A stretch of DNA of 64,000 bases from Candidatus Gorgyraea atricola (GCA_030765235.1 JAVCCW010000030.1:8144-72143), one strand, 5' to 3'; shown: positions 25,491 through 61,676, counted from the stretch's first letter. A program made the numbers and translations. Notes: generated by a model not told the origin, from the letters alone.

Positions 25491-25500
25491 ATGTCCTTCT

Positions 25501-42281: not shown

Positions 42282-43775
42282 CTATTTCTGTATACGGAAA
42301 TTTTCTATATGCATTTCTGGCTCAGCTATCACTACAATCCTGGTCCTGCACTGGGATTCGAGCTTGGTTATGGATGGTCTATCCTCATTCAGAAGATAAT
42401 TCGCCACATTAGGATGCACATACACGCGAATCTCCTTTATGCGAACACGCTCCACTTCCTTCCTTATTGCCCTTAGTGCCTCTATTGCCATTGTGGTAGC
42501 TGACTTTACTGCGCCACGACCTTTACAATACGGGCACTTCTGATATGATACTCTCCTCACGCCCCTACGTATGCGCTGCCTGGTGATCTGCACTATGCCA
42601 AACTCGGACATCCTGAGTATCTTGATCCTTGCCTTGTCCCTCTTGAAACATGTGACCAATATATTAAATATCTCACGGCTGTGCCTGTCCCTCATCATGT
42701 CAATAAAATCTATTATTACTATGCCGCCAATGTCCCTCAGCCGTATCTGCCTGGCGATCTCCACTGCTGCCTCAGAGTTAACTTTAAAGGCTGTGTCTTC
42801 CATGTTCTTTCTGCTAAAAGAACCGCTATTTACATCTATAGCAATAAGCCCTTCTGTCTCTTCTATGAAAATATATCCGCCACACTTAATCGGCACCTTT
42901 TTTCCGTAAAGCCTTTCTATCTCCTTCTCTATGCCACGTGAATCAAAAAGACTCGTCTTCTCCCTGTAAAGCATGAGTTTTCTCTTCATGCTCGGCATGA
43001 TATTATTCGCGAAATGCCGCAATTTATTATATTCTTCCTTGCTGTCAACAAGAACCCTGCTTACGTCCTCGCTAAAGGTATCGCGCAGGATCCTGAATGT
43101 AAGGCCATGCTCTTCATGCACAAGGCCAGGCGGTTTGACCCGGGTAGCATCGCGCTTTATGTTTTTCCAGAGCGCGGCCAAATATTTCACCTCGCGACTG
43201 AAATCATTCTCAGACTTACCAACTCCTGCCGTCCGCACAATAAGTCCCATCTTATAGGCAGGTGCTATCTTTTTCAGGATCTTGTGCAGCCTCTGGCGCT
43301 CTGCCCGATCAACAACCTTTTTAGAAACACCTATATGATGGTCAAAAGGCATCAGCACAACAAACCTGCCAGGTATGCCTATGTGTGTCGTAAGCCGCGG
43401 CCCCTTATTTCCTATGGGCTCTTTTCCCACCTGCACCAGGACATCCTGTTTTTCCCTTACAAGCCTGTTTATATCTGACGGCTTTGGTCTGGGTATTTTT
43501 CTTGGCGCGTGCTTACCCTCTTCATCCAGCACATCGAACTCCCGAGTCGAAGAAAGCATATCAGAAACATACAAAAATCCATTCTTTGACTGCCCTATGT
43601 CCACAAACGCAGCGCCTATACCAGAAACGACTGAATTAACGACTCCCCTGTAAATATTCCCTACCATGGTCACTTCAGACGGCCTCTCTATAAAATACTC
43701 CTGCAGGACCCCGCCCTCTACGACCGCTACTCTTTTTTCCTGCGATTCAACATTGATTAAAATCTCTTTCTGCAC
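42282..43775 (-). CDS. rng: ribonuclease G/E family (Rng/CafA-like)
   Basis: N-terminal S1 domain, RNase E/G catalytic core, ~497 aa without the RNase E scaffold tail. Confidence 0.8.
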   Translation of the reverse strand: MQKEILINVESQEKRVAVVEGGVLQEYFIERPSEVTMVGNIYRGVVNSVVSGIGAAFVDIGQSKNGFLYVSDMLSSTREFDVLDEEGKHAPRKIPRPKPSDINRLVREKQDVLVQVGKEPIGNKGPRLTTHIGIPGRFVVLMPFDHHIGVSKKVVDRAERQRLHKILKKIAPAYKMGLIVRTAGVGKSENDFSREVKYLAALWKNIKRDATRVKPPGLVHEEHGLTFRILRDTFSEDVSRVLVDSKEEYNKLRHFANNIMPSMKRKLMLYREKTSLFDSRGIEKEIERLYGKKVPIKCGGYIFIEETEGLIAIDVNSGSFSRKNMEDTAFKVNSEAAVEIARQIRLRDIGGIVIIDFIDMMRDRHSREIFNILVTCFKRDKARIKILRMSEFGIVQITRQRIRRGVRRVSYQKCPYCKGRGAVKSATTMAIEALRAIRKEVERVRIKEIRVYVHPNVANYLLNEDRPSITKLESQCRTRIVVIAEPEMHIENFRIQK

Positions 43776-44056
43776 TCTACTATCCTCACTTCCTCAGGTA
43801 ATTTTCCATTGATCCTATTCATAAATTCGTCCGGTTCGATCCATTTATCTAAAGAAAAACCCGCCTTTTCGCTTTCGCTTTCAACACCCAACTTTAACGC
43901 CTGCCCAAAACTTATTTTATAATGAGGGGAAAAACCCTGACTCAGGCTAACCGGAAGAGAGGCCCTTCTCACAGATCTCTGAAAAAGCCTTACAATGTCC
44001 AGGTGGGAAATATACCTTAGATCGCCTCTTTTGCAGAACGTCGCCTCTAACTTCAT
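43757..44056 (-). CDS. DUF2344 (TIGR03936-like) protein, unusually short
   Basis: RYISHLDIVRLFQRSVRRASLPVSLSQGFSPHYKISF matches the DUF2344 N-terminus. Only 99 aa; overlaps the rng start. Confidence 0.55.
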   Translation of the reverse strand: MKLEATFCKRGDLRYISHLDIVRLFQRSVRRASLPVSLSQGFSPHYKISFGQALKLGVESESEKAGFSLDKWIEPDEFMNRINGKLPEEVRIVECRKRF

Positions 44057-47973: not shown

Positions 47974-48417
47974 TTATTGCACTACTGGATCATTTACGCT
48001 TGCCGGACCATTAGGATTTGCTTTTATTATGCTGGACTCATCAGAAAAAAAGTATCTCGTGCCTGTTTTTCCAGCAGAAACAGGATTGGCATTCAATGTA
48101 AAGGTCTCGCTGTCAACAAGGGCATAATTAAACGTATAGCCCTGCTTTGTGCCACTGGCAAGTATAGTATCAATGTATGGCGGAATAGAAATCGGCGGAA
48201 CAAGATCCAACATGCTAGATGGATAGGCATGCGGGTAAGAACTCGCGTAAAAGTTCTGTGCCGCAGTAACAACGGTCCTGCATGAAGCCACTGCAGCCAT
48301 CTCATTCGCATTATGCCTGGCGCGCAATACGCTAGAAATAGCCAAGGTCGCAAGCGTCATAACCACTGCGACAACTATCATTATTTCAACTAGGGTAAAC
48401 CCCTGACGCCCTTTCAT
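47974..48417 (-). CDS. type IV pilin / pseudopilin (prepilin cleavage-methylation domain)
   Basis: MKGRQG|FTLVEIMIVVAVV class III signal with Glu+5. Confidence 0.75.
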   Translation of the reverse strand: MKGRQGFTLVEIMIVVAVVMTLATLAISSVLRARHNANEMAAVASCRTVVTAAQNFYASSYPHAYPSSMLDLVPPISIPPYIDTILASGTKQGYTFNYALVDSETFTLNANPVSAGKTGTRYFFSDESSIIKANPNGPASVNDPVVQ

Positions 48418-48462: not shown

Positions 48463-48548
48463 AGTGCCACGTACTAATTTTCCATCGTACGTGGCACTAT
48501 AACAAAACAGAAAAAGTAGACCAGGTTTAAACCTGGTCTACTTTTTTA
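48463..48548 (-). terminator. tandem hairpins downstream of the major pilin gene
   Basis: AAAAAGTAGACCAGGTTTAAACCTGGTCTACTTTTTT (48511-48548) and GTGCCACGTAC-N12-GTACGTGGCAC (48463-48498), both with T-runs in the minus sense. Confidence 0.6.
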
Positions 48549-48559
48549 TTCCTTACTAA

Positions 48560-49006
48560 TTATTCTATCGGTACGCCAGCAGCATTAGTAAGTCTGATAA
48601 CACCGCTCTCATCCACGAAAAATACTCGCGTACCTGTTGTCCCGCTGACAGCTGGTGAAGCAGTGCATGTAAACTGGTTCGCGTTTACAAGTACATAGGC
48701 ATAAAAATACCCTTGCTTTGCATTCGCGGCCGCAGTTGCTCCTCCAAGTCCTCCATCGATGTATGCTGGAGTCGCTCCACTAAGCGCTGCTAAGTTAGCA
48801 GGATACGTGGGTGGCGTCTGCGCTGAACGGAAGCTCTCGCATGCAGTGCTAATGGTTCGGCTAGCTGCAATAGATGCTGCTTCGTTAGCGTTGTGCCTTG
48901 CTCGTAGCAAATTCGGTATGGCAATTGCTGCCAATAAAGATATGATTGCGACGACTATCATGATCTCTACGAGCGTGAAACCATGCCTTTCTCTTAATTT
49001 AAGCAT
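48560..49006 (-). CDS. pilA: type IV major pilin (PilA-like)
   Basis: MLKLRERHG|FTLVEIMIVVAII prepilin signal. Near-consensus sigma70 promoter and AAGGAGG RBS upstream, double hairpin downstream. Confidence 0.8.
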   Translation of the reverse strand: MLKLRERHGFTLVEIMIVVAIISLLAAIAIPNLLRARHNANEAASIAASRTISTACESFRSAQTPPTYPANLAALSGATPAYIDGGLGGATAAANAKQGYFYAYVLVNANQFTCTASPAVSGTTGTRVFFVDESGVIRLTNAAGVPIE

Positions 49007-49037: not shown

Positions 49038-49066
49038 AGTATATCATGCGATATGCGGTTTGTCAA
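49038..49066 (-). promoter_or_regulatory. near-consensus sigma70 promoter of the major pilin gene
   Basis: Minus strand reads TTGACA, 17-nt spacer, TATACT, then AAGGAGG and ATG of the pilin at 49006. Confidence 0.6.
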
Positions 49067-49077
49067 GGCAGGGTCGG

Positions 49078-49095
49078 CCTCCGCAACCCCGGAGG
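49078..49095 (-). terminator. short hairpin after the 1062-aa gene, upstream of the pilin promoter
   Basis: CCTCCG-CAACCC-CGGAGG; shares the GCAACCCCGGAGGTT core with 52476-52524. Confidence 0.35.
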
Positions 49096-49202
49096 TTCTT
49101 TATATATTAGACACATTTGGGAGGGTGGTTTCTTTCAAATTTTTTTGAAATATTTATAAGGAGGGTTAAAAATGTGAAATGTGTAGGCCTACTTCTAGAT
49201 AC

Positions 49203-52200
49203 CTAGATATTATGTATAAAACCTTTTGCTCTCTTGAGAATTTCGGGTATAAAAGGTACCCCGATAATAAAACTACGCATCATCTTGTTCTCAGGTTTAT
49301 TTCTAATTCTAATCATGTCGCCGTTTTTGTCTTTAATAATGTAATCTATAATATATAGGCCGCGTTTCGTTTTCTGTCCTTGATTATTTAAGCCGTTCCA
49401 TTTTAATCTATATTTACCAACACCTTTTGACAAGTTATTAAAACTTCTGACTTCTTTGCCTTCTATATTATAAATCCTTATCTCTAGGCTTTCAATAGAC
49501 TCATCTATGCTATAAGGGATAGTAGTCCTATTAGTAAACGGATTAGGGCGGTTCTGCTCAAGACTTATTGGCTGTTCAGTTGGGTCTATCTCAGCAAGGC
49601 GCCTATGGTCTTTTACTGAAGTGTCTATGGATTCTCCACCTCCTGGCTTAAAAGGATTAAGGCCTTTTTCTACAAGATTCAACCAAGAACCTGCGGCAGT
49701 ATGCTCTACACCTTCAGGAGGAACAATCCAACCATGCTTAGTGTACACAAGTCCTAATTCAGCATATAAGACTGCAAGCATATTATCTCTTTCGACAACA
49801 AGACGAGTATCAGGAGAAGTAACTATGCCATCATAAAGCTCTCCAGCCCATCGCATTAATTCTGTACGCCAAGCATCTGCATTAGCAGGATCTACATTAG
49901 GGTTCTTCCTATAATATGTCGCTGCATCCCTGCATGCAAGGATCATAAATATAGACCATTCTGCAGATCTATTATTTCGTGTATCACTATAATCAACGCC
50001 TGTTAGATTCCCATCTGCATCAAGAATACCAGCCTTATACATTGCGTTTTCTATTATCTTGAAGGTTTCGCCTGGGCCTCCTAAATTATCATCAATCCAT
50101 TTAGGGCCCTTAGACAAAGAAGCCCATAACTGGACATCTGTAGCAAAAACCTCATCCTTGGTCCATGTCTGGCTACCAATGTCAAAACTGGCACCTCGAC
50201 AAAATTCATGCTTACTCGAATCATGTGACCAGCTAAGAAACTCATCTATCCACTGTATGCCTTGTGACAATTTTATTTCCTTACCGTCATGTAAGGTTTC
50301 ATCGTATCCGCCAATAAGTTCATGATACTGCTCGTAAAAGTTAAGCATTGACTGATTATTCTCTAAAGATGCTGTATTATTAAAATGATCCATGCCAAGC
50401 CAATGATATGTACCTCTTGGCGCCATAGGAACAGGTTTTAAATCTGCACCCTGATTTTCTTTATCCTTTTGAAGTATCAATGATGCGCGCAAAATCTCTT
50501 CAGCTAATTGTGCTCGAACATCATTCTTCCAATCAATTTGATTCTTAAAGTCTGCTCCATGCTCTAACACCAGGCTCTGTAAACACATAATCCCTATCCA
50601 TGCAGCCTCACCTGCTATTGGCTGCCATTGACTCCAGGTGATATCCCTGCCTTTATATGTTATGATATACCTCTCGCTTATAAATTTAAAAGGCCATCCC
50701 CTTGTTCTTTTATTATTATTATCCTTGCCTATTACTGTGGGGTCGTTTTCGTAATAATTAAATGGATTTGCATAATCATTTGGACCGCCCCAATTACCGC
50801 GTATATTACTTAACCCGCCTGTCCTGCCTGACCAATAAACATCTGCTATTCTCTTAGTCCTTTCAATAAAGTCCTGGTCACTTTCATCCTTTCCATGTTT
50901 AGCAAGGGCCATGCCAGCTAGTGCCTGATCATAGCCTAAAATACCATGTATTAAAATCTGCAGCATATGATCGTCTACTGCTTGATCATAGATACTCTCA
51001 TTTTCGCCTGGAACATTTAATGTCTTGATAAGCCTTTGTGCCTCATCCGGGGCATCGGGCCAACCCATAATCCCTATGTACAGCTTAGCTCTTACATTCT
51101 CAATCCAGTTTATTATTCTTTCGGCATATCCCTGAACTACCGGTGGTTTGTGAAGTTCATCTATCTCTTGTACCTGCTCCCTGATTTGCTTTACCCTCGG
51201 AACTAAATATTCAGCTATTCCCGCTTGTTCCTGGTTAACCTCATCAAGAGCACCCTCAAGTGCATCCATGTCTAAATCTTTCTTTAGGCCCCAGAATGTC
51301 AACAACACCGCATCATATCCAGTTTCTCCTATATCGCTCAATACACTCTTTAATGTGTCTTTATCGCCAAACAACTTCTTTACCCTGCGCAATTCCCTGA
51401 ATCCATTTTTCAGATCACTTGTTATTTTCTTTTTAACCCTCTCTCTTGCAGGATTCGTCATGCTTTTGCGCTCTCTTCCGCATGTAAGATTACTCAAATC
51501 TATAGGAATCATATAGTACCTTGCCTTATTAAATATGGCGGTAAGCTTCCCTATGTTTTCTTTGGCAAGATTAATCTTTTGCTCCGCAGTCATGGGCTCT
51601 TGAGGAGCACTAGCTGTAAGAGTTGAAGCGGGATTAAGAGCTATTGCAGCAGTAAAAAGTCCTGTAATTTTTAAAAATGTCTTCCTATCTATTCCTGGCA
51701 TTCCAGCTGTCATTGTAAACTGGCCGCCACGGAAATAATATATCGCAATAAGGGCCTGAAGGCTCCGAAAATTGTCTTTCTTGAGAAGCTTTATTAAATC
51801 ACTATCTGAATACTCCCCTTCAGGATCTCCCATCTGTATTACAGCGCTAGTATCAAGATCATCAATTCCTTTATTTAGCTTATAAAGAATTTTTTCTATG
51901 TCATCTAGCTTGAAAACAATCTTCTGGCCCGAGAGTACTGCACTAGGTAAAGTTACGCCTTGAACAATTATCTCGTCTGTCTCTCCAGATGCTTTATGAA
52001 ACTCTAGAGGATCTGTATAAAGCAACAAAATATCCTCTCCCTTAAAACCTAAAACGAATTTTTTGCTTTTAATGCCTTTGATTGCCTGAGCCTTAGTAAT
52101 ATGCACTGTGGACTTATTTGCTAAGAGAATTGGGATCTTAGTCTCTTTTGAGTTTTCAATAGAAGCTAAAGCAGTCTCTTCATTAATAGCAATACCTTGC

Positions 52201-52391
52201 ACATCATAATTAGTCCTATAGAATTCACCTAAAGCTGTTAAGTTAAAACGGTCTTTTCCTTCTTCTGTCTGGAGTTGCGACTGGAGTCTTAGTATATCAG
52301 ATGAGGCATACAAGGTGTGGCTGGATAGAAACGTTGCGAGGAGTATGAAACTAATTAACCTGATTGTCAGACCTTTTTTAAATTTAAGCAT
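49203..52391 (-). CDS. large secreted protein (1062 aa) with C-terminal FlgD-Ig/T9SS-like beta-sandwich sorting-type domain
   Basis: N-terminal signal peptide. C-terminal NRPNPFTNRTTIPYSI...LEIRIYNIEGKEV...GKYRLKWNGLNNQG resembles Por-secretion-tail/FlgD-Ig domains; central region unassigned. Confidence 0.5.
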   Translation of the reverse strand: MLKFKKGLTIRLISFILLATFLSSHTLYASSDILRLQSQLQTEEGKDRFNLTALGEFYRTNYDVQGIAINEETALASIENSKETKIPILLANKSTVHITKAQAIKGIKSKKFVLGFKGEDILLLYTDPLEFHKASGETDEIIVQGVTLPSAVLSGQKIVFKLDDIEKILYKLNKGIDDLDTSAVIQMGDPEGEYSDSDLIKLLKKDNFRSLQALIAIYYFRGGQFTMTAGMPGIDRKTFLKITGLFTAAIALNPASTLTASAPQEPMTAEQKINLAKENIGKLTAIFNKARYYMIPIDLSNLTCGRERKSMTNPARERVKKKITSDLKNGFRELRRVKKLFGDKDTLKSVLSDIGETGYDAVLLTFWGLKKDLDMDALEGALDEVNQEQAGIAEYLVPRVKQIREQVQEIDELHKPPVVQGYAERIINWIENVRAKLYIGIMGWPDAPDEAQRLIKTLNVPGENESIYDQAVDDHMLQILIHGILGYDQALAGMALAKHGKDESDQDFIERTKRIADVYWSGRTGGLSNIRGNWGGPNDYANPFNYYENDPTVIGKDNNNKRTRGWPFKFISERYIITYKGRDITWSQWQPIAGEAAWIGIMCLQSLVLEHGADFKNQIDWKNDVRAQLAEEILRASLILQKDKENQGADLKPVPMAPRGTYHWLGMDHFNNTASLENNQSMLNFYEQYHELIGGYDETLHDGKEIKLSQGIQWIDEFLSWSHDSSKHEFCRGASFDIGSQTWTKDEVFATDVQLWASLSKGPKWIDDNLGGPGETFKIIENAMYKAGILDADGNLTGVDYSDTRNNRSAEWSIFMILACRDAATYYRKNPNVDPANADAWRTELMRWAGELYDGIVTSPDTRLVVERDNMLAVLYAELGLVYTKHGWIVPPEGVEHTAAGSWLNLVEKGLNPFKPGGGESIDTSVKDHRRLAEIDPTEQPISLEQNRPNPFTNRTTIPYSIDESIESLEIRIYNIEGKEVRSFNNLSKGVGKYRLKWNGLNNQGQKTKRGLYIIDYIIKDKNGDMIRIRNKPENKMMRSFIIGVPFIPEILKRAKGFIHNI

Positions 52392-52475
52392 ATTCTAGAC
52401 AAAAAAATAGCTCTATTTGTACTATAATTATACCATAACTTTACATTTAAAGCAAGACCTAAAATGTAAAGGACC

Positions 52476-52524
52476 CCCCGCAACCCCGGAGGTTGCCAGC
52501 ACGGCAACCTCCGGGGTTGCGGGG
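52476..52524 (-). terminator. GC-rich hairpin downstream of pilC
   Basis: CCCCGCAACCCCGGAGGTTGCC-AGCAC-GGCAACCTCCGGGGTTGCGGGG perfect inverted repeat. Confidence 0.5.
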
Positions 52525-52534
52525 TAGGAGAGGA

Positions 52535-53737
52535 TTAATGTGCGAGGATCTCTGTCATCTTGAATACTGGCAGGAACATGGCTATTACTATGCCGCCTAT
52601 CACTACACCTAGAACGGCTATTATAAGCGGCTCTATGAGGCTGGTCAATCCACTCACAGCAGCATCCACCTGGTCATCGTAAAAATCCGCGATCTTCCCG
52701 AGCATCTTTTCGAGTTCGCCTGTCTGCTCGCCTACATTTATCATCCTCACCACCATAGGAGGAAAAACGCCGCTTTTCGCGAGCGGATCAGCTATATTCT
52801 GTCCCTCTTTTATACTCTTGCGAACATCTTCAAGCGCTTTTTCTATTACCGCATTCCCTGAGGTCTTCGCTACTATCTCGAGTGAAACCAGTATCGGCAC
52901 CCCGCTCTTCACAAGTGTCGCGAGCGTTCTTGTAAACTTCGCAACTGCCACCTTTCTCAAGAGTGTACCCAGGATCGGTAGTTTCAAAGTAATACTGTCA
53001 AACACCATTTTGCCCTGTGAAGTCTTAAAATATCTCGCCAGCGCAAAACCAACCACGCCAAGAACAGCGACGACATACAAGAACATACTGCGCAATGTAT
53101 CGCTGACAAGGATCAAGATCCTTGTCGGGAGAGGCAGCGTGCCTCCCAGCGTCGCAAATATGCCCTTGAATGTGGGAATGACCTTTAGGAGCATGACAAG
53201 CGTTATAAGCATTGCCATAGTGACCACCACTGCGGGATAGATCAGGCTGGACTGCACCTTTCTCTGTAAGGCGCTTGCCTTTTCTAAATAACTGGCGAGC
53301 CGATCCAGAATATCATCCAACGCGCCGCTTGATTCACCGGCCTTGACCATATTTATATAAAGGGGTGAAAAAACAGCTGAGTGTTTCAAAAGCGAGTCTG
53401 AAAAACTAGCCCCTGCCTCTATGTCATCCCTGATAGTCGCCACGATGTTTTTAAAGTGCGGCTTTTCTATCTGGTCATATAAAATATCCATGGCCTGTAC
53501 AAGCGGTATTCCGCTATCTACCATTGTGGCCAGCTGCCGGGAAAATATGACGATCTCCTCGAGCTTTACGCCTCTGGAGCTAAAAGGAGCTGTTCTCTTT
53601 TTGGTCTCATTTATAGAGACTATGGTAAGGCCTTTTCTGCGGAGCGCGTCCATTAACACAGCCTTGTCAGAATATTCTAAGGTACCGCTTACTGTCTTGC
53701 CTGTATTTTCTTTTGCAACATATCTAAACGTCGGCAT
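52535..53737 (-). CDS. pilC: type IV pilus inner-membrane platform protein
   Basis: Two T2SS-F domains, 400 aa, 3 TM segments. Confidence 0.85.
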   Translation of the reverse strand: MPTFRYVAKENTGKTVSGTLEYSDKAVLMDALRRKGLTIVSINETKKRTAPFSSRGVKLEEIVIFSRQLATMVDSGIPLVQAMDILYDQIEKPHFKNIVATIRDDIEAGASFSDSLLKHSAVFSPLYINMVKAGESSGALDDILDRLASYLEKASALQRKVQSSLIYPAVVVTMAMLITLVMLLKVIPTFKGIFATLGGTLPLPTRILILVSDTLRSMFLYVVAVLGVVGFALARYFKTSQGKMVFDSITLKLPILGTLLRKVAVAKFTRTLATLVKSGVPILVSLEIVAKTSGNAVIEKALEDVRKSIKEGQNIADPLAKSGVFPPMVVRMINVGEQTGELEKMLGKIADFYDDQVDAAVSGLTSLIEPLIIAVLGVVIGGIVIAMFLPVFKMTEILAH

Positions 53738-53739
53738 GT

Positions 53740-55371
53740 TTAATCCTCCGATGTAACTCTCGAAACCTCTTCCATGGTAGTGACCCCGTCTTTATATTTC
53801 TCCATCGCATCATCTCTAAGCGTCTTCATTCCTTTAGAAATAGCGTATTCCCTTATATCATCTGTCGAGGCCTTTCCTATGATCATTTCCCGCATCTTAT
53901 CATCTACGCTCAAGACTTCCAGTATAGCACACCTTCCGTAATAGCCAGTGCCTGAACACTTTTTGCAAGTTTCTTTTTTTCCTTTACAGTCTGGGCAAAT
54001 TACCCTGCATAATCTCTGCGCTGCCACCAATATCACTGACGAGGCGATCAAAAAAGGCTCGACACCCATATCCATAAGTCGGTTAACAGCTGTTGGCGCG
54101 TCATTGGTGTGGAGTGTACTCAAGACAAGCTGGCCTGTCAACGACGCCTTTATTGCTATATCAGCAGTTTCAGAATCGCGTATCTCTCCGATCATTATCA
54201 CATCAGGGCTCTGTCTTAAAAGAGACCGTAGCCCACTCGCAAAATTAAGGCCTATATCTGAATTCGCCTGCATCTGAGTTATACCCTCGACCTGATATTC
54301 CACAGGGTCTTCTATTGTTATAATATTTTTGTCCGGCGTATTTAACTGACTTATTACGGAATAGAGTGTGGTGGATTTACCGCTGCCTGTCGGACCAGTT
54401 ACCAGTATCATGCCAAAGGGTTTAGCGACTGCCTTTTCGAATCTCGTCAGGGCATATTTTGAAAAACCTAATTTATTAAGTCCTATAGAAAGACTGGATT
54501 TATCAAGCGCCCTCAATACTATCTTGCTTCCAAATGATGTAGGCAAGGCCGAGACCCTGAAATCTACTTCTTTGTTCCGTGTACGTATCTTAAACCTGCC
54601 GTCCTGAGGCGTGCGCGATTCTGTTATATCCATACCTGACATGATCTTAAGCCTTGCCAGGATCGCATTTTGATTTTTCTTGGGGATCTTAAGTACGTCA
54701 TGAAGATTGCCGTCGATCCTGTATCTGACCCGCAGATCATCTTCTTCTGGCTCAACATGAATATCTGACGCCCTTTTCTTTAATGCCTCCACAAGGATCA
54801 GATCCACCATCTTTACGATCGGAGGCGCCTCTCCCTCAAGGGCCGCATCAGTTATATCAAACTCTTCTTTTATAGCGCCTATTACTTCGACATCACCATC
54901 TTCGGCGTCTTTAATAATATCCGATAGCGTCCTTCCCTCTGAGGCGTAAAACTTATCTATTGCCTGGAATATCTCTGTCTCTGTGCTCAAGACTGGTTCT
55001 ACATTGCACTTTGTGATCATCTTTAAATCGTCTATTGCAAATATATTCAGCGGATCGACCATGGCCACAACAAGTGTTGTGGAAAATTTACATATGGCAA
55101 TTGCCCTGTATTGCCTTGCCACCTTTTCAGGTATAAGGGGAACAGACTCCTTTTCTACTTTATATTTCGAGAGATTTATGGCGGGGATACTAAAAGTGCT
55201 GCTCATGACAACCAGCAAGTCCTTTTCGCTTACCAATCCTTCCTTAAGAAGTATCTCAGGCAAACTCCCGCCTTCCCTTGCCTGCTTTTCCCTAACGCGC
55301 TTAAGGTCTTTCTCTGAGATAAGCTTGTTTTTAATCAGGACCTGACTTAATTTATAGTGTGTGGTTGCCAT
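53740..55371 (-). CDS. pilB: type IV pilus assembly ATPase PilB/GspE family (copy 1)
   Basis: T2SSE_N domain, Walker A GPTGSGKSTT, Asp/His boxes, tetracysteine CPDC...CKKC. Confidence 0.85.
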   Translation of the reverse strand: MATTHYKLSQVLIKNKLISEKDLKRVREKQAREGGSLPEILLKEGLVSEKDLLVVMSSTFSIPAINLSKYKVEKESVPLIPEKVARQYRAIAICKFSTTLVVAMVDPLNIFAIDDLKMITKCNVEPVLSTETEIFQAIDKFYASEGRTLSDIIKDAEDGDVEVIGAIKEEFDITDAALEGEAPPIVKMVDLILVEALKKRASDIHVEPEEDDLRVRYRIDGNLHDVLKIPKKNQNAILARLKIMSGMDITESRTPQDGRFKIRTRNKEVDFRVSALPTSFGSKIVLRALDKSSLSIGLNKLGFSKYALTRFEKAVAKPFGMILVTGPTGSGKSTTLYSVISQLNTPDKNIITIEDPVEYQVEGITQMQANSDIGLNFASGLRSLLRQSPDVIMIGEIRDSETADIAIKASLTGQLVLSTLHTNDAPTAVNRLMDMGVEPFLIASSVILVAAQRLCRVICPDCKGKKETCKKCSGTGYYGRCAILEVLSVDDKMREMIIGKASTDDIREYAISKGMKTLRDDAMEKYKDGVTTMEEVSRVTSED

Positions 55372-55379
55372 ATTTCGTT

Positions 55380-57095
55380 TTATTCATCCGCTACAGTAAC
55401 TCTTAATATCTCTTCTAAGCTGGTAACGCCTTCGAGCACTTTTATAAGGCCGTCTTCTCTGAGTGTCCGCATGCCTTCTTTTCTTGCCTGGTTTTTCATC
55501 TCACTTTCCCGTACATTTTTCAAAATCATATTTTTTATCGACGGGCTCATGGTCAGGATTTCGCATATGCCCAACCTTCCGCTATATCCTGTGTTAAAAC
55601 AGTGCTCGCATCCCTTTGGCCTGTAAAGAGTCGAGTTCTTTGACTTATCCTTACCAATGCGCAGGTCAGCAATAATCGCATCACTTGGCTTATAAGATTC
55701 TTTGCACTTTGGACATAACTTACGGATCAATCTTTGGGCAACTATAGATATTAAAGAGGCGCTTATAAGAAAAGGCTCTACGCCCATATTTATAAGCCTC
55801 ACTACTGAACCACACGCGGTTGTCGTGTGTAATGTTGAAAAAACAAGATGTCCCGTAAGCGCAGACTTTATAGCGATGTCCACTGTATCAAAATCCCTTA
55901 TCTCTCCTATCATTATCACATCAGGATCCTGCCTCAAGATAGAGCGCAATGAACTTGCGAACGTAAGGCCTACTTCAGTCCTTACCGTGACCTGATTCAC
56001 ACCCTGGATCTGGTACTCAACAGGATCTTCAACTGTTATAAGATTTTTCTCAGAAGAGTGGACATGTTTCAATAATGAATAAAGCGTGGTGGTCTTTCCA
56101 CTGCCTGTAGGCCCGCACACCAGTATCATTCCATGAGGATGGGACGCTGATTTTTTAAACACTGCTACATTATTTTTTTCAAAGCCGAGTTTTTCAATAT
56201 CCAGCATAGCGCTAGACTTATCCAGCACCCTGAGCGCCACCTTTTCGCCTTTAGAGGAAGGTAAGATAGAGACCCTGAAATCCACTTCATTATCCTTTAC
56301 CCTTAATTTGAAACGGCCGTCCTGAGGAAGCCTGCGCTCAGCAATATTCAGTCGAGACATGACCTTTATCCTTGAGACAATAGACTCATGCCTGCTCTTT
56401 GGCAAAGACTCTATTGTCTTAAGCACTCCGTCTACCCTGTATCGTATGCGCAGAGATTTTTCCATTGGCTCTATCAGGATGTCGCTCGATCGCGCCTTTA
56501 TACCATTTTCAAGGATCGTGTTTGTCAATCTCACAACAGGCGCCTCTTCTACTAATTTATAGAGGCGTGCGGAATCAACTTCCTCTTCAGCCTCTGCCCT
56601 GATGATCTCAAGGTCTGCAATTTTCATGTCCTCCATCAGGTCTTCTATTGCTGCATGAGAATATCCGCCATAATGCTCTGCTATTACATCCTGTACTTCT
56701 TTCTGTGACGCGATAATAGTGCCTGTCTCGAATCCTGTAAGCGAACGGATATCATCTATCGCAAATACGTTCAGGGGGTCAGCCGTTGCTATCGTAAGGA
56801 TATTTCCTACTTTAGAGACAGGGACGATCTGATATTTTTTCGCTATATCAGCTGGCACTAGCTTCAATATCTCAGGATCGATTTTAAAACGGGAGAGTGC
56901 TATGGGTGGAATGCCTAAGCCCTGACTTAAGGCTGCCATTAGATCTCTTTCGCTCGCAAATCCAAGATTAACAAGAACATCCTTTAGCAAGCCGCCCTTC
57001 TGCTTCTGGACCTTCAAGGCCTTTTTTAGCTGGGCGTCAGTGATGACCTTGTTTTTTATCAATATCTCAGTAATGCGTTCTTTGAGAGAATACAT
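55380..57095 (-). CDS. pilB: type IV pilus assembly ATPase PilB/GspE family (copy 2)
   Basis: T2SSE_N domain, Walker A GPTGSGKTTT, tetracysteine CPKC...CEHC, 571 aa. Confidence 0.85.
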   Translation of the reverse strand: MYSLKERITEILIKNKVITDAQLKKALKVQKQKGGLLKDVLVNLGFASERDLMAALSQGLGIPPIALSRFKIDPEILKLVPADIAKKYQIVPVSKVGNILTIATADPLNVFAIDDIRSLTGFETGTIIASQKEVQDVIAEHYGGYSHAAIEDLMEDMKIADLEIIRAEAEEEVDSARLYKLVEEAPVVRLTNTILENGIKARSSDILIEPMEKSLRIRYRVDGVLKTIESLPKSRHESIVSRIKVMSRLNIAERRLPQDGRFKLRVKDNEVDFRVSILPSSKGEKVALRVLDKSSAMLDIEKLGFEKNNVAVFKKSASHPHGMILVCGPTGSGKTTTLYSLLKHVHSSEKNLITVEDPVEYQIQGVNQVTVRTEVGLTFASSLRSILRQDPDVIMIGEIRDFDTVDIAIKSALTGHLVFSTLHTTTACGSVVRLINMGVEPFLISASLISIVAQRLIRKLCPKCKESYKPSDAIIADLRIGKDKSKNSTLYRPKGCEHCFNTGYSGRLGICEILTMSPSIKNMILKNVRESEMKNQARKEGMRTLREDGLIKVLEGVTSLEEILRVTVADE

Positions 57096-57097
57096 AG

Positions 57098-57535
57098 CTA
57101 TTTATAATGATTATTTATTGCGTTCTTGATATCCGTCGCTGTGCTTACAAAAATTTGGACGCACAGACCTGAAACAAGCTCTATGTCTTCTATTGCGAGA
57201 CTGTTCAAAGGGTTTGACATCGCTATTGTAAGATTATTGCCGATCTTATCCACGGGAATGAGACAAAACTGCGTAGCCACATTCTTTGGCACGATCTTAA
57301 CGATCTCAGAATCTATATCATAATTATCGAGCGGCAGGTAAGGGAATCCGTATTGCGCGGTCAAGGCCTGCGCAATAGCTTCTTCAGTCGCATATTTCAG
57401 ACCCACAAGGACTTGGCCAATGAGCCCGCCCTTTGTTTTTTGCACCTCAAGCGCATGCTGAAGCTGCTTTTTATTGATAATTCCTCTTTCAATAAGAAGC
57501 TCTCCTAATTTTTTCTTAATGATCTTTTTCGCCAT
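57098..57535 (-). CDS. stand-alone T2SSE_N / MshEN-like domain protein (putative c-di-GMP receptor)
   Basis: 145 aa carrying two tandem 24-residue MshEN-like motifs, KLGELLIERGIINKKQLQHALEVQ and LIGQVLVGLKYATEEAIAQALTAQ. Confidence 0.65.
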   Translation of the reverse strand: MAKKIIKKKLGELLIERGIINKKQLQHALEVQKTKGGLIGQVLVGLKYATEEAIAQALTAQYGFPYLPLDNYDIDSEIVKIVPKNVATQFCLIPVDKIGNNLTIAMSNPLNSLAIEDIELVSGLCVQIFVSTATDIKNAINNHYK

Positions 57536-58636
57536 TTATGTCTTCTCTTTAAACATCCTCTCTAAATCCTGCACCTCAGTGGTCCTGCCCAGCGCGTCTT
57601 CCTTTGTAATCTGTCCTTGTACAAAAAGATCAAAGAGTGACTGGTTCATTGTCTGCATACCTTCTCTCTGAGCAGTCTGCATAGTAGAATAAACCTGATG
57701 CGCTTTTGATTCCCTGATCTGACTCCGCACCGCAGCGCTGTTCACAAGAACCTCTACTGCCAGCACCCTGTCCTTTCCGGATCGGCTTGGTATCAGCTGC
57801 TGCGACAAAACACCCATCATCACAAACGAGAGCTGTGCCCTGACCTGGGGCTGCTGCCTCGCAGGAAAAACATCGATGATACGATTTATTGTCTGTACGC
57901 TATCTGATGTGTGCAGTGTCGCTAAAACCAGATGGCCTGTCTCTGCAATAGTCAATGCTGCCTCTACTGTCTCGAGATCTCTCATTTCCCCTATCAAGAT
58001 GACATCAGGATCTTCTCTCAGAACATGCTTGAGCGCTTTTGCAAAAGTAAGCGTATCGCTGCCGACCTCTCTTTGGTCTATTATTGACTTCTTATTAGTA
58101 TGTACATACTCTATGGGGTCTTCAACCGTAATTATATGACAATCCTTGCGGCTATTGATCCAGTCTACCATCGAGGCCAGCGTCGTTGATTTTCCACTGC
58201 CAGTAGCGCCTGTAACAAGCACAAGCCCTTTGGGCTTTTCGCAGAAGCCCTCCATTACATTTATTGGCAGGCCGCATTCTTCAAAACTCCGTATCTTAAA
58301 AGGCAATGCCCTGATAGCAGCGCCAACGTATCCCCTCTGCCAAAACACATTGACCCTGAATCTGCCAAATTCTTCTTTAGTAAACGCGAAATCCAACTCT
58401 CTGTCTCTTTCAAAGTGCGCCTTCTGCTCATTGGTAAGAATAGAATATATTAAATCCTTTGACGAATTCTCAGTCAATTCCTTCTCGCTAAGCGCCACAA
58501 GGCCCCCATGCACTCTTAGATGCGGGACAGACCCGACTCCCAAATGTAGATCCGATGCATTCTGTTTTACCATCTCCTTCAGTAATTGATTTAGATCTAT
58601 TGCCATGCAATTCTCCTTTCGATATTCACACCACAA
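57536..58636 (-). CDS. pilT: twitching-motility retraction ATPase
   Basis: GLVLVTGATGSGKSTT Walker A, PilT AIRALPF-like and GEMRD motifs; ~356 aa from MAIDLNQLL. Confidence 0.85.
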   Translation of the reverse strand: MWCEYRKENCMAIDLNQLLKEMVKQNASDLHLGVGSVPHLRVHGGLVALSEKELTENSSKDLIYSILTNEQKAHFERDRELDFAFTKEEFGRFRVNVFWQRGYVGAAIRALPFKIRSFEECGLPINVMEGFCEKPKGLVLVTGATGSGKSTTLASMVDWINSRKDCHIITVEDPIEYVHTNKKSIIDQREVGSDTLTFAKALKHVLREDPDVILIGEMRDLETVEAALTIAETGHLVLATLHTSDSVQTINRIIDVFPARQQPQVRAQLSFVMMGVLSQQLIPSRSGKDRVLAVEVLVNSAAVRSQIRESKAHQVYSTMQTAQREGMQTMNQSLFDLFVQGQITKEDALGRTTEVQDLERMFKEKT

Positions 58637-60038
58637 CCCTGTTTTTACCTAATGATTTCGCGCTCTTAATAAGCTCCTCTGCCTTTTTCATAAGCTCATC
58701 TGCGCTTGAACCATCTATGGGATTCTCGCTCACGGCTATACTTACAGTCAGTTTCCCGCTGATCTCCATAAGTTTTGCAAGTCCAGATTCTACTTTTTTC
58801 TTTATCTCCTCTGCAACGTTTGCAACTTGTTTTTTATTTTTCTCAGGAACAATTATTGCAAACCTGTCTGTGGACAGGCGGCCGACTTTATCTACCGCTG
58901 TCACGCTGCTATTGAGCATCTCACCTAAACATTTTAGCAGAGTCTCTGCTTTTGATTCGCCAAAGCGCTCGTTAAAATCTTTAAAATTATCAATATCTAC
59001 GAGCAGATAACCGCATGGCCTCTGGTAAAGACACGCCCTTTTTATTTCTTCGTCAAGCCTTGCATGTATAAAACCTTCGTTGTAAAGTCCTGTTAATTCA
59101 TCCTTTACTGCGAGCTCCTTTGCTTTCTTTACCAGGATATCGTTCTCAACGGCTATTGTAACCTGTTTAACAAATATCCTCAGAAGCTCCTTTTCGTCTT
59201 CTTTGAACAGAAAATCCTCTTTTGCATTGCCTAACACGAGCATGCCGTAAGGCCTTCTGGAAATAACTATTGGAAGGATAGCAATGTTTTTCAAACCAAG
59301 CGAGGCGATAATCTTATTCGCTGCTATACTCCTAGGCTTCGAAGCCTTATCTATAATAAGCATATCTGTAACAAGATCACCTCTCTTAAGCACTAATTCA
59401 CTCACTCTCTTTTTTTCAATATTTGACTGTGAAAATACCCCGGGTTCTCCTGAAACGCTGTCCGGCAGCATAATAAACGAGCAAGAACCGTTCCCGAGCT
59501 CTGATATCTTTTGCGATATAAAATCAAGGATCCTTAGAAGATCCGTTGAAGAAGATATGAGATTGCCTACCTGCAAAAGCCCTGAAAGCGCAAGTACCTT
59601 CTTATTTATCTCCATATTGATCAACTTTGTCTTTTCACCATAGTTCTTCAGCTCTTCTATGTTATCCTTGATCTTCTGCGTCATAATATTTAAAGACATT
59701 GATAGCTCACCGATCTCGTCCTCGCGATCCACCTTGATCACTCTCTCCATGTCTCCTTCTGCGATTCCCCTTGCGTCAACCGCCATCTGGACCACAGGAT
59801 CTATCATCTGCTTTGTCGTATACAGCCCAAGAAGGGATATAATAATAGATATAACCAATATTAGACTTATATTGCCCAGTGAGAGACCAAGAAATAAAGC
59901 AATGTTAGGAAAGATGTAAGTCGTAACAAGCCATACGCATATCAAAAGCGGTATAAGCGACATCAGAGAAAAGGCGATCATCGTCTTGTACTTCAAACCT
60001 TTAGGAACCAGGGACATCTTTTTCAAGAAATTAATCAT
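58626..60038 (-). CDS. membrane protein with HAMP, GAF and a degenerate GGDEF domain
   Basis: Two N-terminal TM segments; HAMP-like IMTQKIKDNIEEL; GGDEF fold (LTGLYNEGF...DIDNFKDFNERFGESKAETLL) but the signature reads GRLSTDRF instead of GGDEF/GGEEF. Confidence 0.65.
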   Translation of the reverse strand: MINFLKKMSLVPKGLKYKTMIAFSLMSLIPLLICVWLVTTYIFPNIALFLGLSLGNISLILVISIIISLLGLYTTKQMIDPVVQMAVDARGIAEGDMERVIKVDREDEIGELSMSLNIMTQKIKDNIEELKNYGEKTKLINMEINKKVLALSGLLQVGNLISSSTDLLRILDFISQKISELGNGSCSFIMLPDSVSGEPGVFSQSNIEKKRVSELVLKRGDLVTDMLIIDKASKPRSIAANKIIASLGLKNIAILPIVISRRPYGMLVLGNAKEDFLFKEDEKELLRIFVKQVTIAVENDILVKKAKELAVKDELTGLYNEGFIHARLDEEIKRACLYQRPCGYLLVDIDNFKDFNERFGESKAETLLKCLGEMLNSSVTAVDKVGRLSTDRFAIIVPEKNKKQVANVAEEIKKKVESGLAKLMEISGKLTVSIAVSENPIDGSSADELMKKAEELIKSAKSLGKNRVVV

Positions 60039-60092: not shown

Positions 60093-61676
60093 TCAAGCAA
60101 CAATAAAGCTCCAGGGAAACTTAGTATCTCTGTTTTTAGTCAGGTACGGATCTGGATTAATTCCAGATTCTTCAAAGCATTGCAGCCAGAGATCGTAGTT
60201 AAAATGCTCTGTCCATGCCTGAAGTCTGGCACCCTTTTGCCAGGCCATTTGTATAACCTGGCCTACTTTCCTGTCTCCCCTGGATAAAATCGCTTCGATC
60301 CTGCTCATGCGAAGATCATGAAAATCCATTCTTATTTTTGTCTTTGAACGTAAATATTCTCTTTTATTTTTCAACACTTCTATATCTTCCATGCCTTCTC
60401 TTTCAAATTCCGAATGCGGCTTTGGTATAAATGGAGAGATGCTCAGGTTGACTCTTTTTATGCTCGAGGCAAGCTCTATGATCGCGTCTAAATCCTCTTC
60501 TCTTTCACCTGGCAGCCCTATCATAAAATAAAGTTTGACCTTTTTCCATCCTGATTTAAGCGCGATCTCAGATCTCTGTATTATATCTTTATTTTCAATA
60601 TCCTTGTTCAAAAGTTTCCTTAATCGATCACTGCCGGATTCTGGCGCGAATGTCAATCCAGCCCTTTTCACAACACCACCTGCCTTGCCAGCATCAAAAC
60701 TTTTGACCCTAAGAGAGGGTAAGGATATCTTTATGCCCAGCGGTTTAAACTTCTCCCCTAACTTTCCAACAAGTTCCTCGAGATATGGATAATTTCCGCT
60801 GGAAAGAGATAAAAGTGAGATCTCTTCATACCCTGTGCTTTTTATTGACTCTTCTGCTATTTCCAAAATCCTTTTTACTGAGCGTATGCGAAGAGGTTGA
60901 AATATTTTACACGCCTGACAAAACCTGCAGCGGTGTGGACATCCACGCATGATCTCAATACTGATCCTATCATGCACGATCTGAAGATACGGGACGATCG
61001 GATCTGTAGGAAAATACGCGCTGTCGAGATCCCCTATGATGCGCTTCGTGATATTTGATGCCCGATATGTTGGAACGTACACACCTTTAATCTTCGCAAG
61101 CTCTCTCAACACCTTGTCCCTTGTCCCGCCTGTCCCGAGCGAAGTCGAGGGATGTCCCTTGTCCCTAATAATGCCCGTAATCTCAAGTACCGCCTCTTCA
61201 GCCTCGCCGATCACAAACGCATCGACAAAGTCTGCCATTGGCTCAGGATTAAACGCGCATGGCCCGCCAGCTATGACCAATGGATGCTCGTCTCCTCTAT
61301 CAGCGCTACGAAGCGGGATCTCGCCGAGCTCTAAAATATTCAAGACATCCACAAAACTCATCTCGTACTGGAGAGAAAAGCCAAGTATGTCAAAATCCTT
61401 CAGCGGCCTTCTGCTTTCCAGCGACGTAAGCACAGTCCCTTCCGTTCTCATCTTTCGCTCCATGTCAACCCACGGCGAAAACACCCGCTCACAAAGAATA
61501 TCCTTTTTGCTATTCAAGAGACCGTATATTATCTTCATCCCCAAATGACTCATACCTATTTCGTATATATCAGGAAAACAAAGCGCCACCTTTAACCTGT
61601 CACTCGTCCATTCCTTATGGACAGCATTCCACTCCTTATTTATATATCTGCCTGGTTTTAAAATAGTTTTCTCCAT
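60093..61676 (-). CDS. radical SAM protein, TIGR03960-like (usual partner of DUF2344 next to rng)
   Basis: B12-like N-terminal domain, CPHRCRFCQA motif, ~527 aa; carries a palindromic-element insert. Confidence 0.75.
   Translation of the reverse strand: MEKTILKPGRYINKEWNAVHKEWTSDRLKVALCFPDIYEIGMSHLGMKIIYGLLNSKKDILCERVFSPWVDMERKMRTEGTVLTSLESRRPLKDFDILGFSLQYEMSFVDVLNILELGEIPLRSADRGDEHPLVIAGGPCAFNPEPMADFVDAFVIGEAEEAVLEITGIIRDKGHPSTSLGTGGTRDKVLRELAKIKGVYVPTYRASNITKRIIGDLDSAYFPTDPIVPYLQIVHDRISIEIMRGCPHRCRFCQACKIFQPLRIRSVKRILEIAEESIKSTGYEEISLLSLSSGNYPYLEELVGKLGEKFKPLGIKISLPSLRVKSFDAGKAGGVVKRAGLTFAPESGSDRLRKLLNKDIENKDIIQRSEIALKSGWKKVKLYFMIGLPGEREEDLDAIIELASSIKRVNLSISPFIPKPHSEFEREGMEDIEVLKNKREYLRSKTKIRMDFHDLRMSRIEAILSRGDRKVGQVIQMAWQKGARLQAWTEHFNYDLWLQCFEESGINPDPYLTKNRDTKFPWSFIVA
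61112..61165. repeat. heptamer plus CGCCTGTCCCGAGCGAAGTCGAGGGATGTCCC module, in frame in the TIGR03960 radical SAM gene
   Basis: Reads DKGHPSTSLGTGGTRDK. Confidence 0.7.

Follow-up and report, generated by a model that had tools for sequence, protein, structure and literature searches.

Gene X in the type IV pilus locus of Candidatus Gorgyraea atricola: a probable secreted protein with a predicted glycosidase-like barrel

The type IV pilus (T4P) locus of Candidatus Gorgyraea atricola, a member of the Omnitrophota represented by a metagenome-assembled genome from Ace Lake, Antarctica (PMC8542988), contains a long open reading frame (ORF) between pilC and the pilin genes. The ORF and its 1062-residue product are here called gene X and X, and the window is the whole stretch of 64,000 nucleotides that was analysed (GCA_030765235.1, JAVCCW010000030.1:8144-72143). 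On the strength of predicted structure and of comparisons between loci, X is regarded, with modest confidence, as an accessory, exported, multi-domain carbohydrate-active protein that is not a structural part of the pilus. Its body is predicted to fold into an (alpha/alpha)6 barrel like those of glycosidases, and the comparison of loci shows X as an apparent recent arrival, brought in by repeat-associated insertion and confined to a narrow clade.

Gene X occupies positions 49203–52391 of the minus strand, including the stop codon, and begins with ATG. The ORF list and its translation bear out the 1062-residue frame between pilC and the pilin genes that had been described in the initial annotation. 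NCBI lists an identical protein of Candidatus Gorgyraea atricola under the name 'FlgD immunoglobulin-like domain containing protein'. The one known orthologue of X is P0002, which is 79% identical and is found on four contigs at the same position in the pilus locus. The ratio of nonsynonymous to synonymous substitution rates (Ka/Ks) between the bodies of the two proteins is 0.23, which indicates purifying selection, and therefore X is a real gene.

A predicted six-hairpin barrel in the body of X

The structure of residues 456–930 (49602–51026, minus strand) has been predicted by AlphaFold2 (AF2) with a local confidence score (pLDDT) of 83 and a predicted template modelling score (pTM) of 0.88. 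In the model, twelve helices are arranged in two concentric layers and form the alpha/alpha barrel that defines the six-hairpin glycosidase superfamily. The strong structural neighbours of the barrel are enzymes without exception: the methylmannose polysaccharide hydrolase MmpH (7qsj, score 26.2), dextran dextrinase (9ju0, 24.0), CPF_2247 (3ren, 23.2), a glycosidase related to glycoside hydrolase family 15 (GH15), the unsaturated glucuronyl hydrolase of GH88, cellobiose and glucose 2-epimerases (these all about 22), and the mannanases of GH76 (21.5). Grouped by family, the closest relatives in fold are MmpH, GH15 and GH15-like enzymes (9ju0, 5z3a and 1lf6), CPF_2247, GH88/GH105 and GH76. The barrel is 5–13% identical in sequence to its structural neighbours; therefore, it belongs to the six-hairpin superfamily but lies outside any described family. 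It differs from the known six-hairpin glycosidases in its extra beta-hairpin insertions and in the lack of a match at the sequence level.

Searches of Pfam, NCBIfam and the sequences of the PDB with the body of X gave nothing usable, whether the single sequence or a profile of A1, an alignment of 16 sequences of the barrel domain, was used as the query. The best Pfam match was to GH47, with an E-value of 0.02, in one of the 16 family members. The earlier statement that the body has no recognizable catalytic motif is thus correct at the level of sequence libraries. The fold tells otherwise: structure prediction of the central region, which the initial annotation had itself proposed, gave the glycosidase-like barrel.

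The residues D488, E677-N678, S681, D752 and Q754 of the segment D752-Q754, and E811-W812 are kept in 82–84 of the 84 domains compared, a set that includes X, which keeps all of them. They are placed by the model at the starts (first turns) of alternate helices, H47, H237, H312 and H371, the place of the active-site funnel in this fold, and we infer that the four carboxylates (D488, E677, D752 and E811) cluster in the central pocket.

An exhaustive HMMER search of X against 1.8 billion representatives identified residues ~460–920 as a recurrent domain, present at E < 1e-10 in about 70 proteins that have varied architectures and lengths of up to 7,102 residues. In a scan of one genome per species in GTDB, 173 relatives were found. 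The best 79 loci of the 173, to which the counts of family loci given here refer, are almost all from Omnitrophota genomes, some of them deposited under Planctomycetes labels. The usual member of the family is about 500 residues long and consists of a Sec-like leader and the barrel. Other copies are situated, once or several times, within proteins of 4,000–7,000 residues (loci L008, L010, L018, L041, L066 and L085). The barrel is also fused to dockerin, FG-GAP and CarboxypepD_reg domains, and in one protein (P0013, 1331 residues) it stands behind a glycosyltransferase family 2 (GT2) synthase. The commonest neighbours of the ~500-residue members (loci L007–L085) are histidine kinases (17 loci), response regulators (15) and PilZ-like proteins (11). 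The family as a whole points to a carbohydrate-active, extracytoplasmic role. Its typical members are leader-bearing proteins of ~500 residues or domains of giant Omnitrophota proteins, and not housekeeping enzymes unrelated to surface biology, homology to which would have spoken against a role at the surface. The predicted glycosidase-like body also fits the earlier suggestion of a surface-displayed or secreted enzyme.

The sequence family is new, centred on Omnitrophota and recognized by no protein-family library; its six-hairpin fold is well known. West-Roberts et al. (bioRxiv 10.1101/2023.11.21.568195) report a GH76-like fold, revealed only by predicted structures, in segments of giant Omnitrophota proteins that lack annotation, and propose that these proteins digest the cell walls of prey. 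It is probably the same kind of domain as the barrel of X. Omnitrophota are uncultured, very small and suspected to live on other cells, and most of their large surface proteins are unannotated. The profile of A1 could be used to annotate the same domain in otherwise blank regions of the giant proteins, and the family of X offers a concrete enzyme candidate, with four named carboxylates, for the proposed attack on the cell walls of partners.

The barrel is preceded by a helical region (residues 263–455; 51027–51605, minus strand), which is matched by the close orthologue P0002 only. The region is predicted, at low confidence, to be helical, with a pLDDT of ~55, and its Ka/Ks is 0.22.

Leader, N-terminal module and C-terminal domain

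X begins with a leader that resembles a Sec-type signal peptide (residues 1–30; 52302–52391, minus strand). It reads MLKFKKGLTIR followed by LISFILLATFLSS and HTLYA/SS, with a basic n-region, a hydrophobic core of 13 residues and the site LYA/SS. Strongly hydrophobic windows of 19 residues occur in X just at residues 4–30 and 591–609, the latter within the helical barrel. The leader is almost identical in the orthologue (Ka 0.015). This reading agrees with the signal peptide proposed in the initial annotation, and X is probably exported. A lipoprotein was ruled out because X has no early cysteine, the first being residue 304. A leader of the type ..SLIILLTFxFTNxVYP-x-Q.. is common to X and to otherwise unrelated proteins of these genomes (P0003, P0017, P0029 and the one encoded at 4207–6051 of L088), which hints at a lineage-specific leader or a common processing site.

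The leader is followed by a rare N-terminal module (residues 31–229; 51705–52301, minus strand), which ends in SLQALIAIYYFRGGQF. Counterparts of residues 1–262 were found in just six other proteins: P0015, P0017, P0029, P0107, P0070 and P0002. The module is present twice, in tandem, in P0017 and is internally deleted in P0002; it rides on different cargos, one of which is an aldose epimerase, and once stands alone. It closes with SLQALVAIYxRGGxF, after which comes a twin-arginine-like segment. The N-terminal 460 residues of X have been modelled by AF2 from eight sequences, and the confident part of the model is the core of the module, residues 60–225, with a pLDDT of 77–88. A Foldseek search of the PDB gave no fold match for the module (best E-value 0.16). 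Residues 31–229 are essentially unrelated to the corresponding part of the orthologue (L001, 10091–10420), with a Ka of 0.83 and a difference in length of 90 residues. By contrast, the adjoining regions have a Ka of 0.05–0.08 and the leader one of 0.015; therefore, gene X is a mosaic.

Residues 230–262 (51606–51704, minus strand; MPGIDRKTFLKITGLFTAAIALNPASTLTASA) resemble a signal of the twin-arginine translocation (Tat) pathway that is internal rather than N-terminal, since it begins at residue 230 of the ORF. The segment of X (MPGIDRKTFLK..., with RK in place of RR) scores below the cut-off of TIGR01409 and gives weak matches to three Tat leaders, those of PvdN, the formate dehydrogenase target and DsrO. 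The segment of the orthologue P0002 (MPRREFIKTSTAATIGLGLLTTPTALTPSENIA, MPRREFIKTS...NIA), scanned in isolation, passes TIGR01409 with 19.7 bits against a cut-off of 16.7, and RR-type motifs are present at the equivalent position in P0015 and P0070. The motif reads MPRREFIK, SRRKFVE and MPRREMLK in the relatives and DRKTFLK in X, and it often has Met-Pro ahead of it, as if at a former start codon. No clear ribosome-binding site precedes Met230 of X. Locus L001 has AGGAGG there, but it is placed 1 nucleotide upstream, and many genes here are without such sites. Met230 may be a second, internal start, or the segment may have been left behind when two genes fused. No Tat genes were seen among the ~40 window proteins that were scanned.

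Behind the barrel lies a FlgD-type immunoglobulin (Ig)-like beta-sandwich (residues 942–1028; 49308–49568, minus strand). The Pfam family FlgD_ig (PF13860) matches residues 955–1014 with an E-value of 2.3e-8 and 34.4 bits, above its cut-off of 27, and matches to this domain make up most of the 23,395 HMMER matches to X. The possibility that X is the FlgD hook-capping protein was rejected, because the FlgD family models reach 12–24 bits against cut-offs of 230–383 and are confined to the Ig-like domain. The protein ends in a basic and hydrophobic tail (residues 1029–1062 and the stop codon; 49203–49307, minus strand), in which lysine and arginine account for 21.6% of the residues and which is poorly conserved in the orthologue (Ka 0.52). 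Beyond the column aligned to residue 1015, X continues for 47 residues, compared with ~16–18 in typical carriers of the domain. The initial annotation had described a sorting-type module, likened to those of the type IX secretion system (T9SS), followed by a basic tail. The FlgD-type domain and the tail are present as described; the assignment to T9SS sorting does not stand, because the sorting-domain models remain below their cut-offs (PF18962, Por_Secre_tail, 20.5 against 27; TIGR04183, 19.5 against 23; and likewise CHU_C, PF13585) and ~34 residues follow the domain. The likeness to the type A sorting domains of the T9SS consists in a beta-sandwich of ~80 residues near the C-terminus; the differences are the scores below the cut-offs and the position, which is not terminal.

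The spacer between pilC and the pilin genes

The comparison of gene order covered the one orthologous species and five relatives anchored by PilC (L089–L093). In the window and in L001–L003, where the PilC proteins are 94–100% identical, pilC is followed by gene X and then by the pilin genes. In L092 (PilC identity 93%), the place of X is taken by a gene for a 213-residue Y1 transposase, behind which a pilin gene follows. The pilC gene of L089 (92%) is followed by a glgC-like gene, an acetyltransferase gene and leuCD, without pilins. In L091 (84%), the pilin promoter (TTGACA-17-TATACT) is located ~10 nucleotides past the pilC stop codon and is followed by the pilin gene, with neither X nor a hairpin. 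The contigs of L090 (97%) and L093 (82%) end just after pilC. X is therefore present in the window and L001–L003 only and is absent at L091, L089 and L092, whose PilC identities are 84–93%; the co-occurrence with pilus loci that the initial annotation had proposed to check did not extend to these relatives. Two metagenome scans, with the protein alone and with an alignment of three sequences, found no further orthologues. A word-indexed protein search with X returned only the identical protein and one orthologue; the same search with the family profile returned only three distant proteins. The assemblies of L090 and L093 stop no more than a few bases from the pilC stop codon, where L089 (8204–8330) switches to unrelated genes; a repeat or a variable junction at that point would be consistent with this.

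Directly after the pilC stop codon lies a perfect palindrome with a 22-bp stem (CCCCGCAACCCCGGAGGTTGCC; 52476–52524, minus strand), which has a folding free energy of −56.1 kcal/mol (z −8.1). It is kept in L001–L003, where it is followed by TTTT. The hairpin on the other side of X (49078–49095) has a 6-bp stem and is no more stable than shuffled sequence (z −0.56). Nevertheless, it is a non-chance copy of an arm of the upstream palindrome: the window contains the shared 15-mer three times, where 0.03 occurrences would be expected, and only at the two sites flanking X. The same palindrome flanks the transposase gene of L092 (GCA_018818505.1, JAHIRR010000275.1, 5498–6285) on both sides, together with three tandem CCGCAACCT units. 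The transposase, located between pilC and the pilin gene, matches the Pfam family Y1_Tnp with 27.6 bits, above the cut-off of 23; its best NCBIfam model is REP_Tyr_transpos, with an E-value of 3e-14 and a score of 53, below the cut-off of 80.

Compared with L092, the sequence that separates X from the pilin promoter breaks down into the left flank of the element, half a palindrome arm and the right flank with the pilin promoter. The 53 bases at 49094–49146 share 96% identity with the left flank of the transposase element, and the sequence from 49097 down to 49004 matches its right arm and the pilin promoter at 89%. The segment 49078–49146 (minus strand), which is absent from L001, is, as read from this alignment, the collapsed remnant of an L092-like element.

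Palindromes of the kind called repetitive extragenic palindromic (REP) sequences or REPINs are associated with REP-associated tyrosine transposases (RAYTs; PMC3116915, PMC3337134). By their sequence features, the palindromes around X are REP/REPIN-like repeats of this RAYT-associated kind. They share with the known systems the perfect and extragenic palindrome, its presence in several copies and its position on both sides of a Y1 transposase, here in the sister genome L092. They differ in that they occupy two sites of this 64-kb window and in that the transposase remains under the NCBIfam cut-off for RAYTs; a translated search of the whole window found no RAYT gene. Both hairpins that the initial annotation had assigned to the gene as its own do exist, but they are copies of a REP-like palindrome that also flanks the Y1 transposase of the sister genome. 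Their interpretation as terminators of gene X was rejected, since the downstream one is unstable and absent in L001 and both are such copies.

The comparison shows the pilC–pilin spacer as an apparent hot spot of insertion and rearrangement, marked by the REP-like palindrome, and this explains why X is found between pilC and the pilin promoter. Because the hot spot contains REP repeats and, in the sister genome, a transposase, the position in the pilus locus is weak evidence of function, and caution is needed since it says little about what X does. The closest homologue of the body beyond the orthologue in the HMMER search, P0003 (38% identical), and the carriers of the N-terminal module P0017 and P0029 are encoded away from pilus genes. 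X has no N_methyl match, and therewith no class III prepilin leader, whereas both neighbouring pilins have one. The earlier suggestion of a pilus adhesin or tip protein finds no pilin-type leader, no X in relatives with 84–93% PilC identity, and homologues placed outside pilus loci. X has an apparent export signal and its gene adjoins genes of the machine, as is the case for exoproteins secreted by T4P or type II machines; these features are common to many unrelated genes. By its sequence features X is not a structural part of the T4P, and nothing shows that it belongs to the pilus.

The neighbourhood of X is a complete set of genes for a type IVa pilus (T4aP). In the order of transcription, it comprises pilT, a stand-alone MshEN protein, two pilB, pilC (T2SSF; 52535–53737, upstream of gene X), X, two N_methyl pilin genes (48560–49006 and 47974–48417, downstream of X), pilM, pilN, pilO, a small protein and pilQ. 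The third-codon-position GC content (GC3) of X is 0.33, compared with 0.39–0.52 in the pilus genes, and its Ka/Ks is 0.23–0.49, compared with 0.09–0.15. A candidate promoter of gene X, read from the sequence (52427–52455, minus strand), consists of TTGCTT, a 17-nucleotide spacer and the extended −10 element TGg-TATAAT, and is kept in the orthologous locus L001 as ...TGGTATACT. The promoter-like site and the deviating GC3 fit a recent arrival of X, as do the homologues encoded away from pilus genes. The site was not listed by the consensus scan because its −35 hexamer matches the consensus at just three of six positions. The promoter of the first pilin gene (49038–49066, minus strand; TTGACA, 17 nucleotides, TG-TATACT), which lies outside gene X, has 11 of 12 consensus matches plus the TG in the same scan.

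Several further features of the window were recorded. A strong terminator-like hairpin at 48511–48546 (minus strand), with a 16-bp stem, a free energy of −25.7 kcal/mol (z −6.2) and a following T run, sits right after the first pilin gene and ahead of the second, an arrangement one would expect of a major pilin that is highly expressed. The part of the pilus locus at 53740–60038 (minus strand) encodes two full PilB-type ATPases with MshEN domains and the additional stand-alone MshEN protein (145 residues, 57098–57535), and a HAMP-GAF-GGDEF protein is encoded directly upstream of pilT (58626–60038, minus strand). The MshEN domains and the GGDEF protein suggest control of the pilus by cyclic diguanylate (c-di-GMP). 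An ORF of 99 residues at 43757–44056 (minus strand) matches only the first half of DUF2344. The Radical_SAM_N2 gene (60093–61676, minus strand), which we take to be the usual partner of DUF2344, lies 16 kb away from it, with the whole pilus cluster in between, an arrangement also seen in L001 and L089–L093; the cluster may itself sit between two normally adjacent genes. The region 22000–26000 has a low GC content of 0.33–0.38, against ~0.44, and encodes a 7TM-GAF histidine kinase, a B12-binding radical SAM protein and an NAD_binding_4 reductase. Next to it are genes for an AMP-binding enzyme and a FadL-type outer-membrane protein, and the region is possibly an acquired lipid-related island.

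Proposed function, alternatives and known systems

According to the proposed mechanism, X would be exported by the Sec pathway, as its leader suggests. The predicted barrel would bind a glycan chain in its central pocket and, by analogy with other (alpha/alpha)6 glycosidases, might cleave it by acid/base catalysis. The Ig-like domain may help to hold the enzyme on the glycan or on a cell surface. The enzyme would act outside the cytoplasm, and its target could be a polysaccharide of a partner cell, of a prey cell or of the environment.

Several observations weigh against this proposal. Export is read from the sequence and enzymatic activity from the predicted fold. With ~10% identity to solved enzymes, a hydrolase, a lyase, an epimerase or a transglycosylase are all candidates for what the modelled barrel may be. 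The glutamine of the motif F-x-Q-G, near-invariant in the family (80 of 84 domains), is arginine in X and its orthologue (residue 732; 50194–50196, minus strand), a change that could alter or weaken the activity. The combination of a Sec-like leader with an internal Tat-like segment fits no ready topology. Furthermore, about eight of the 79 family loci have genes of T4P or type II secretion systems (T2SS) within 10 kb, and in L012, L034 and L061 the family members are in one same-strand run with T4P/T2SS-type genes. Two surveys (bioRxiv 10.1101/2023.11.21.568195 and another) also report that glycoside hydrolases and secretion or pilus genes are recurrent around the giant proteins of Omnitrophota. 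Eight of 79 is at most about twice a roughly guessed expectation of 5% and is not decisive.

The main rival explanation is that X is a cargo or partner of the T4P machine, a glycan-degrading effector that would be exported to the periplasm, then pass through the PilQ secretin or travel on the pilus, and act at the contact with a host or prey cell. It is a possible but unlikely alternative. Gene X lies inside a complete T4aP locus (pilT, two pilB, pilC, two pilins and pilMNOQ), a position that its only known orthologue shares, some distant members at L012, L061 and L034 share a strand with pilB, pilC, pilM and pilO genes, and the surveys that report T2SS/T4P genes and glycoside hydrolases near the Omnitrophota giants propose an attack on the walls of prey. 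However, X is missing from the same locus at 84–93% PilC identity and has its own promoter-like site, an upstream REP palindrome and an atypical GC3; the sister genome L092 holds a transposase at the same site; P0003 and the module carriers P0017 and P0029 are encoded elsewhere; and the enrichment of secretion genes around the family is small at best. A broader version is improbable: that X and its relatives are glycan-cutting effectors delivered by T4P or type II-like machines where a host or prey cell is touched, the locus being a fresh pilus-plus-effector unit and the N-terminal module with its Tat-like signal part of a new targeting device through which a single ORF would use two export routes or yield two isoforms.

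There is also only a small chance that X trims or remodels glycans of the cell's own envelope (an exopolysaccharide, a periplasmic glucan or a wall polymer), possibly easing the passage of the pilus. The fusion of the barrel behind a processive-type GT2 synthase in P0013 speaks for such a role, and synthase-coupled hydrolases such as BcsZ, PgaB and PslG show a similar pattern. The histidine kinases, response regulators and PilZ-like proteins next to the ~500-residue members also count for it, because c-di-GMP is linked to the control of exopolysaccharides, as do the GGDEF protein and the MshEN domains of the pilus locus. Nevertheless, the fusions to dockerin and FG-GAP domains and the copies in giant surface proteins suggest an outward role instead, close relatives with the same pilus locus manage without X, and the enzymes with which secretion systems are known to open the wall are small transglycosylases of a lysozyme-like kind, which have a different fold. 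It is less probable still that the barrel is non-catalytic and that X is a glycan-binding adhesin, with the (alpha/alpha)6 pocket and the Ig-like domain acting as lectins. The loss of the F-x-Q-G glutamine in the lineage of X, the Ka/Ks values above those of the pilus genes and the adhesin idea of the initial annotation would agree with binding alone, but all four family-wide carboxylates and the residues next to them are retained, and the strong structural neighbours are enzymes throughout. Sorting of X through its C-terminal domain as a substrate of the T9SS is hardly to be expected. X shows weak similarity to Por_Secre_tail, CHU_C and TIGR04183 and to PorU at its C-terminal end, but every one of these matches is under its curated cut-off, X runs on for ~34 residues where typical carriers stop with the domain, and no T9SS components were seen among the ~40 window proteins scanned. 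The T9SS is known from the Fibrobacteres-Chlorobi-Bacteroidetes group and is not known from Omnitrophota.

The preferred reading, in which X is an accessory exported protein with a carbohydrate-active barrel, can be compared with systems that share its separate features. The actinobacterial Rieske protein is inserted jointly by the Sec and Tat pathways, and an even number of helices leaves its RR motif facing the cytoplasm. X resembles such proteins in having an interior motif of the twin-arginine type, followed by a mildly hydrophobic stretch, and an N-terminal hydrophobic segment; it differs in that one such segment rather than an even number of membrane helices precedes the motif, and in having RK instead of RR. 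TcpF of the toxin-coregulated pilus (TCP) of Vibrio cholerae and CofJ of the CFA/III pilus of enterotoxigenic Escherichia coli (ETEC) are secreted by type IVb pili, and PulA of Klebsiella is secreted by a type II system. Like X, they are leader-bearing proteins other than pilins that are encoded among pilus or secretion genes. However, their genes are conserved within the operons and experiments have shown that they are secreted, whereas gene X, a recent arrival in a type IVa locus, has a promoter-like site of its own and nothing ties it to the machine. Gene X itself is of an ordinary kind, encoding, on this reading, a secreted carbohydrate-active enzyme with an Ig-like domain. Compared with the GH76-like domains of the giant Omnitrophota proteins, X is a protein of 1062 residues that bears a leader of its own together with a C-terminal Ig-like domain.

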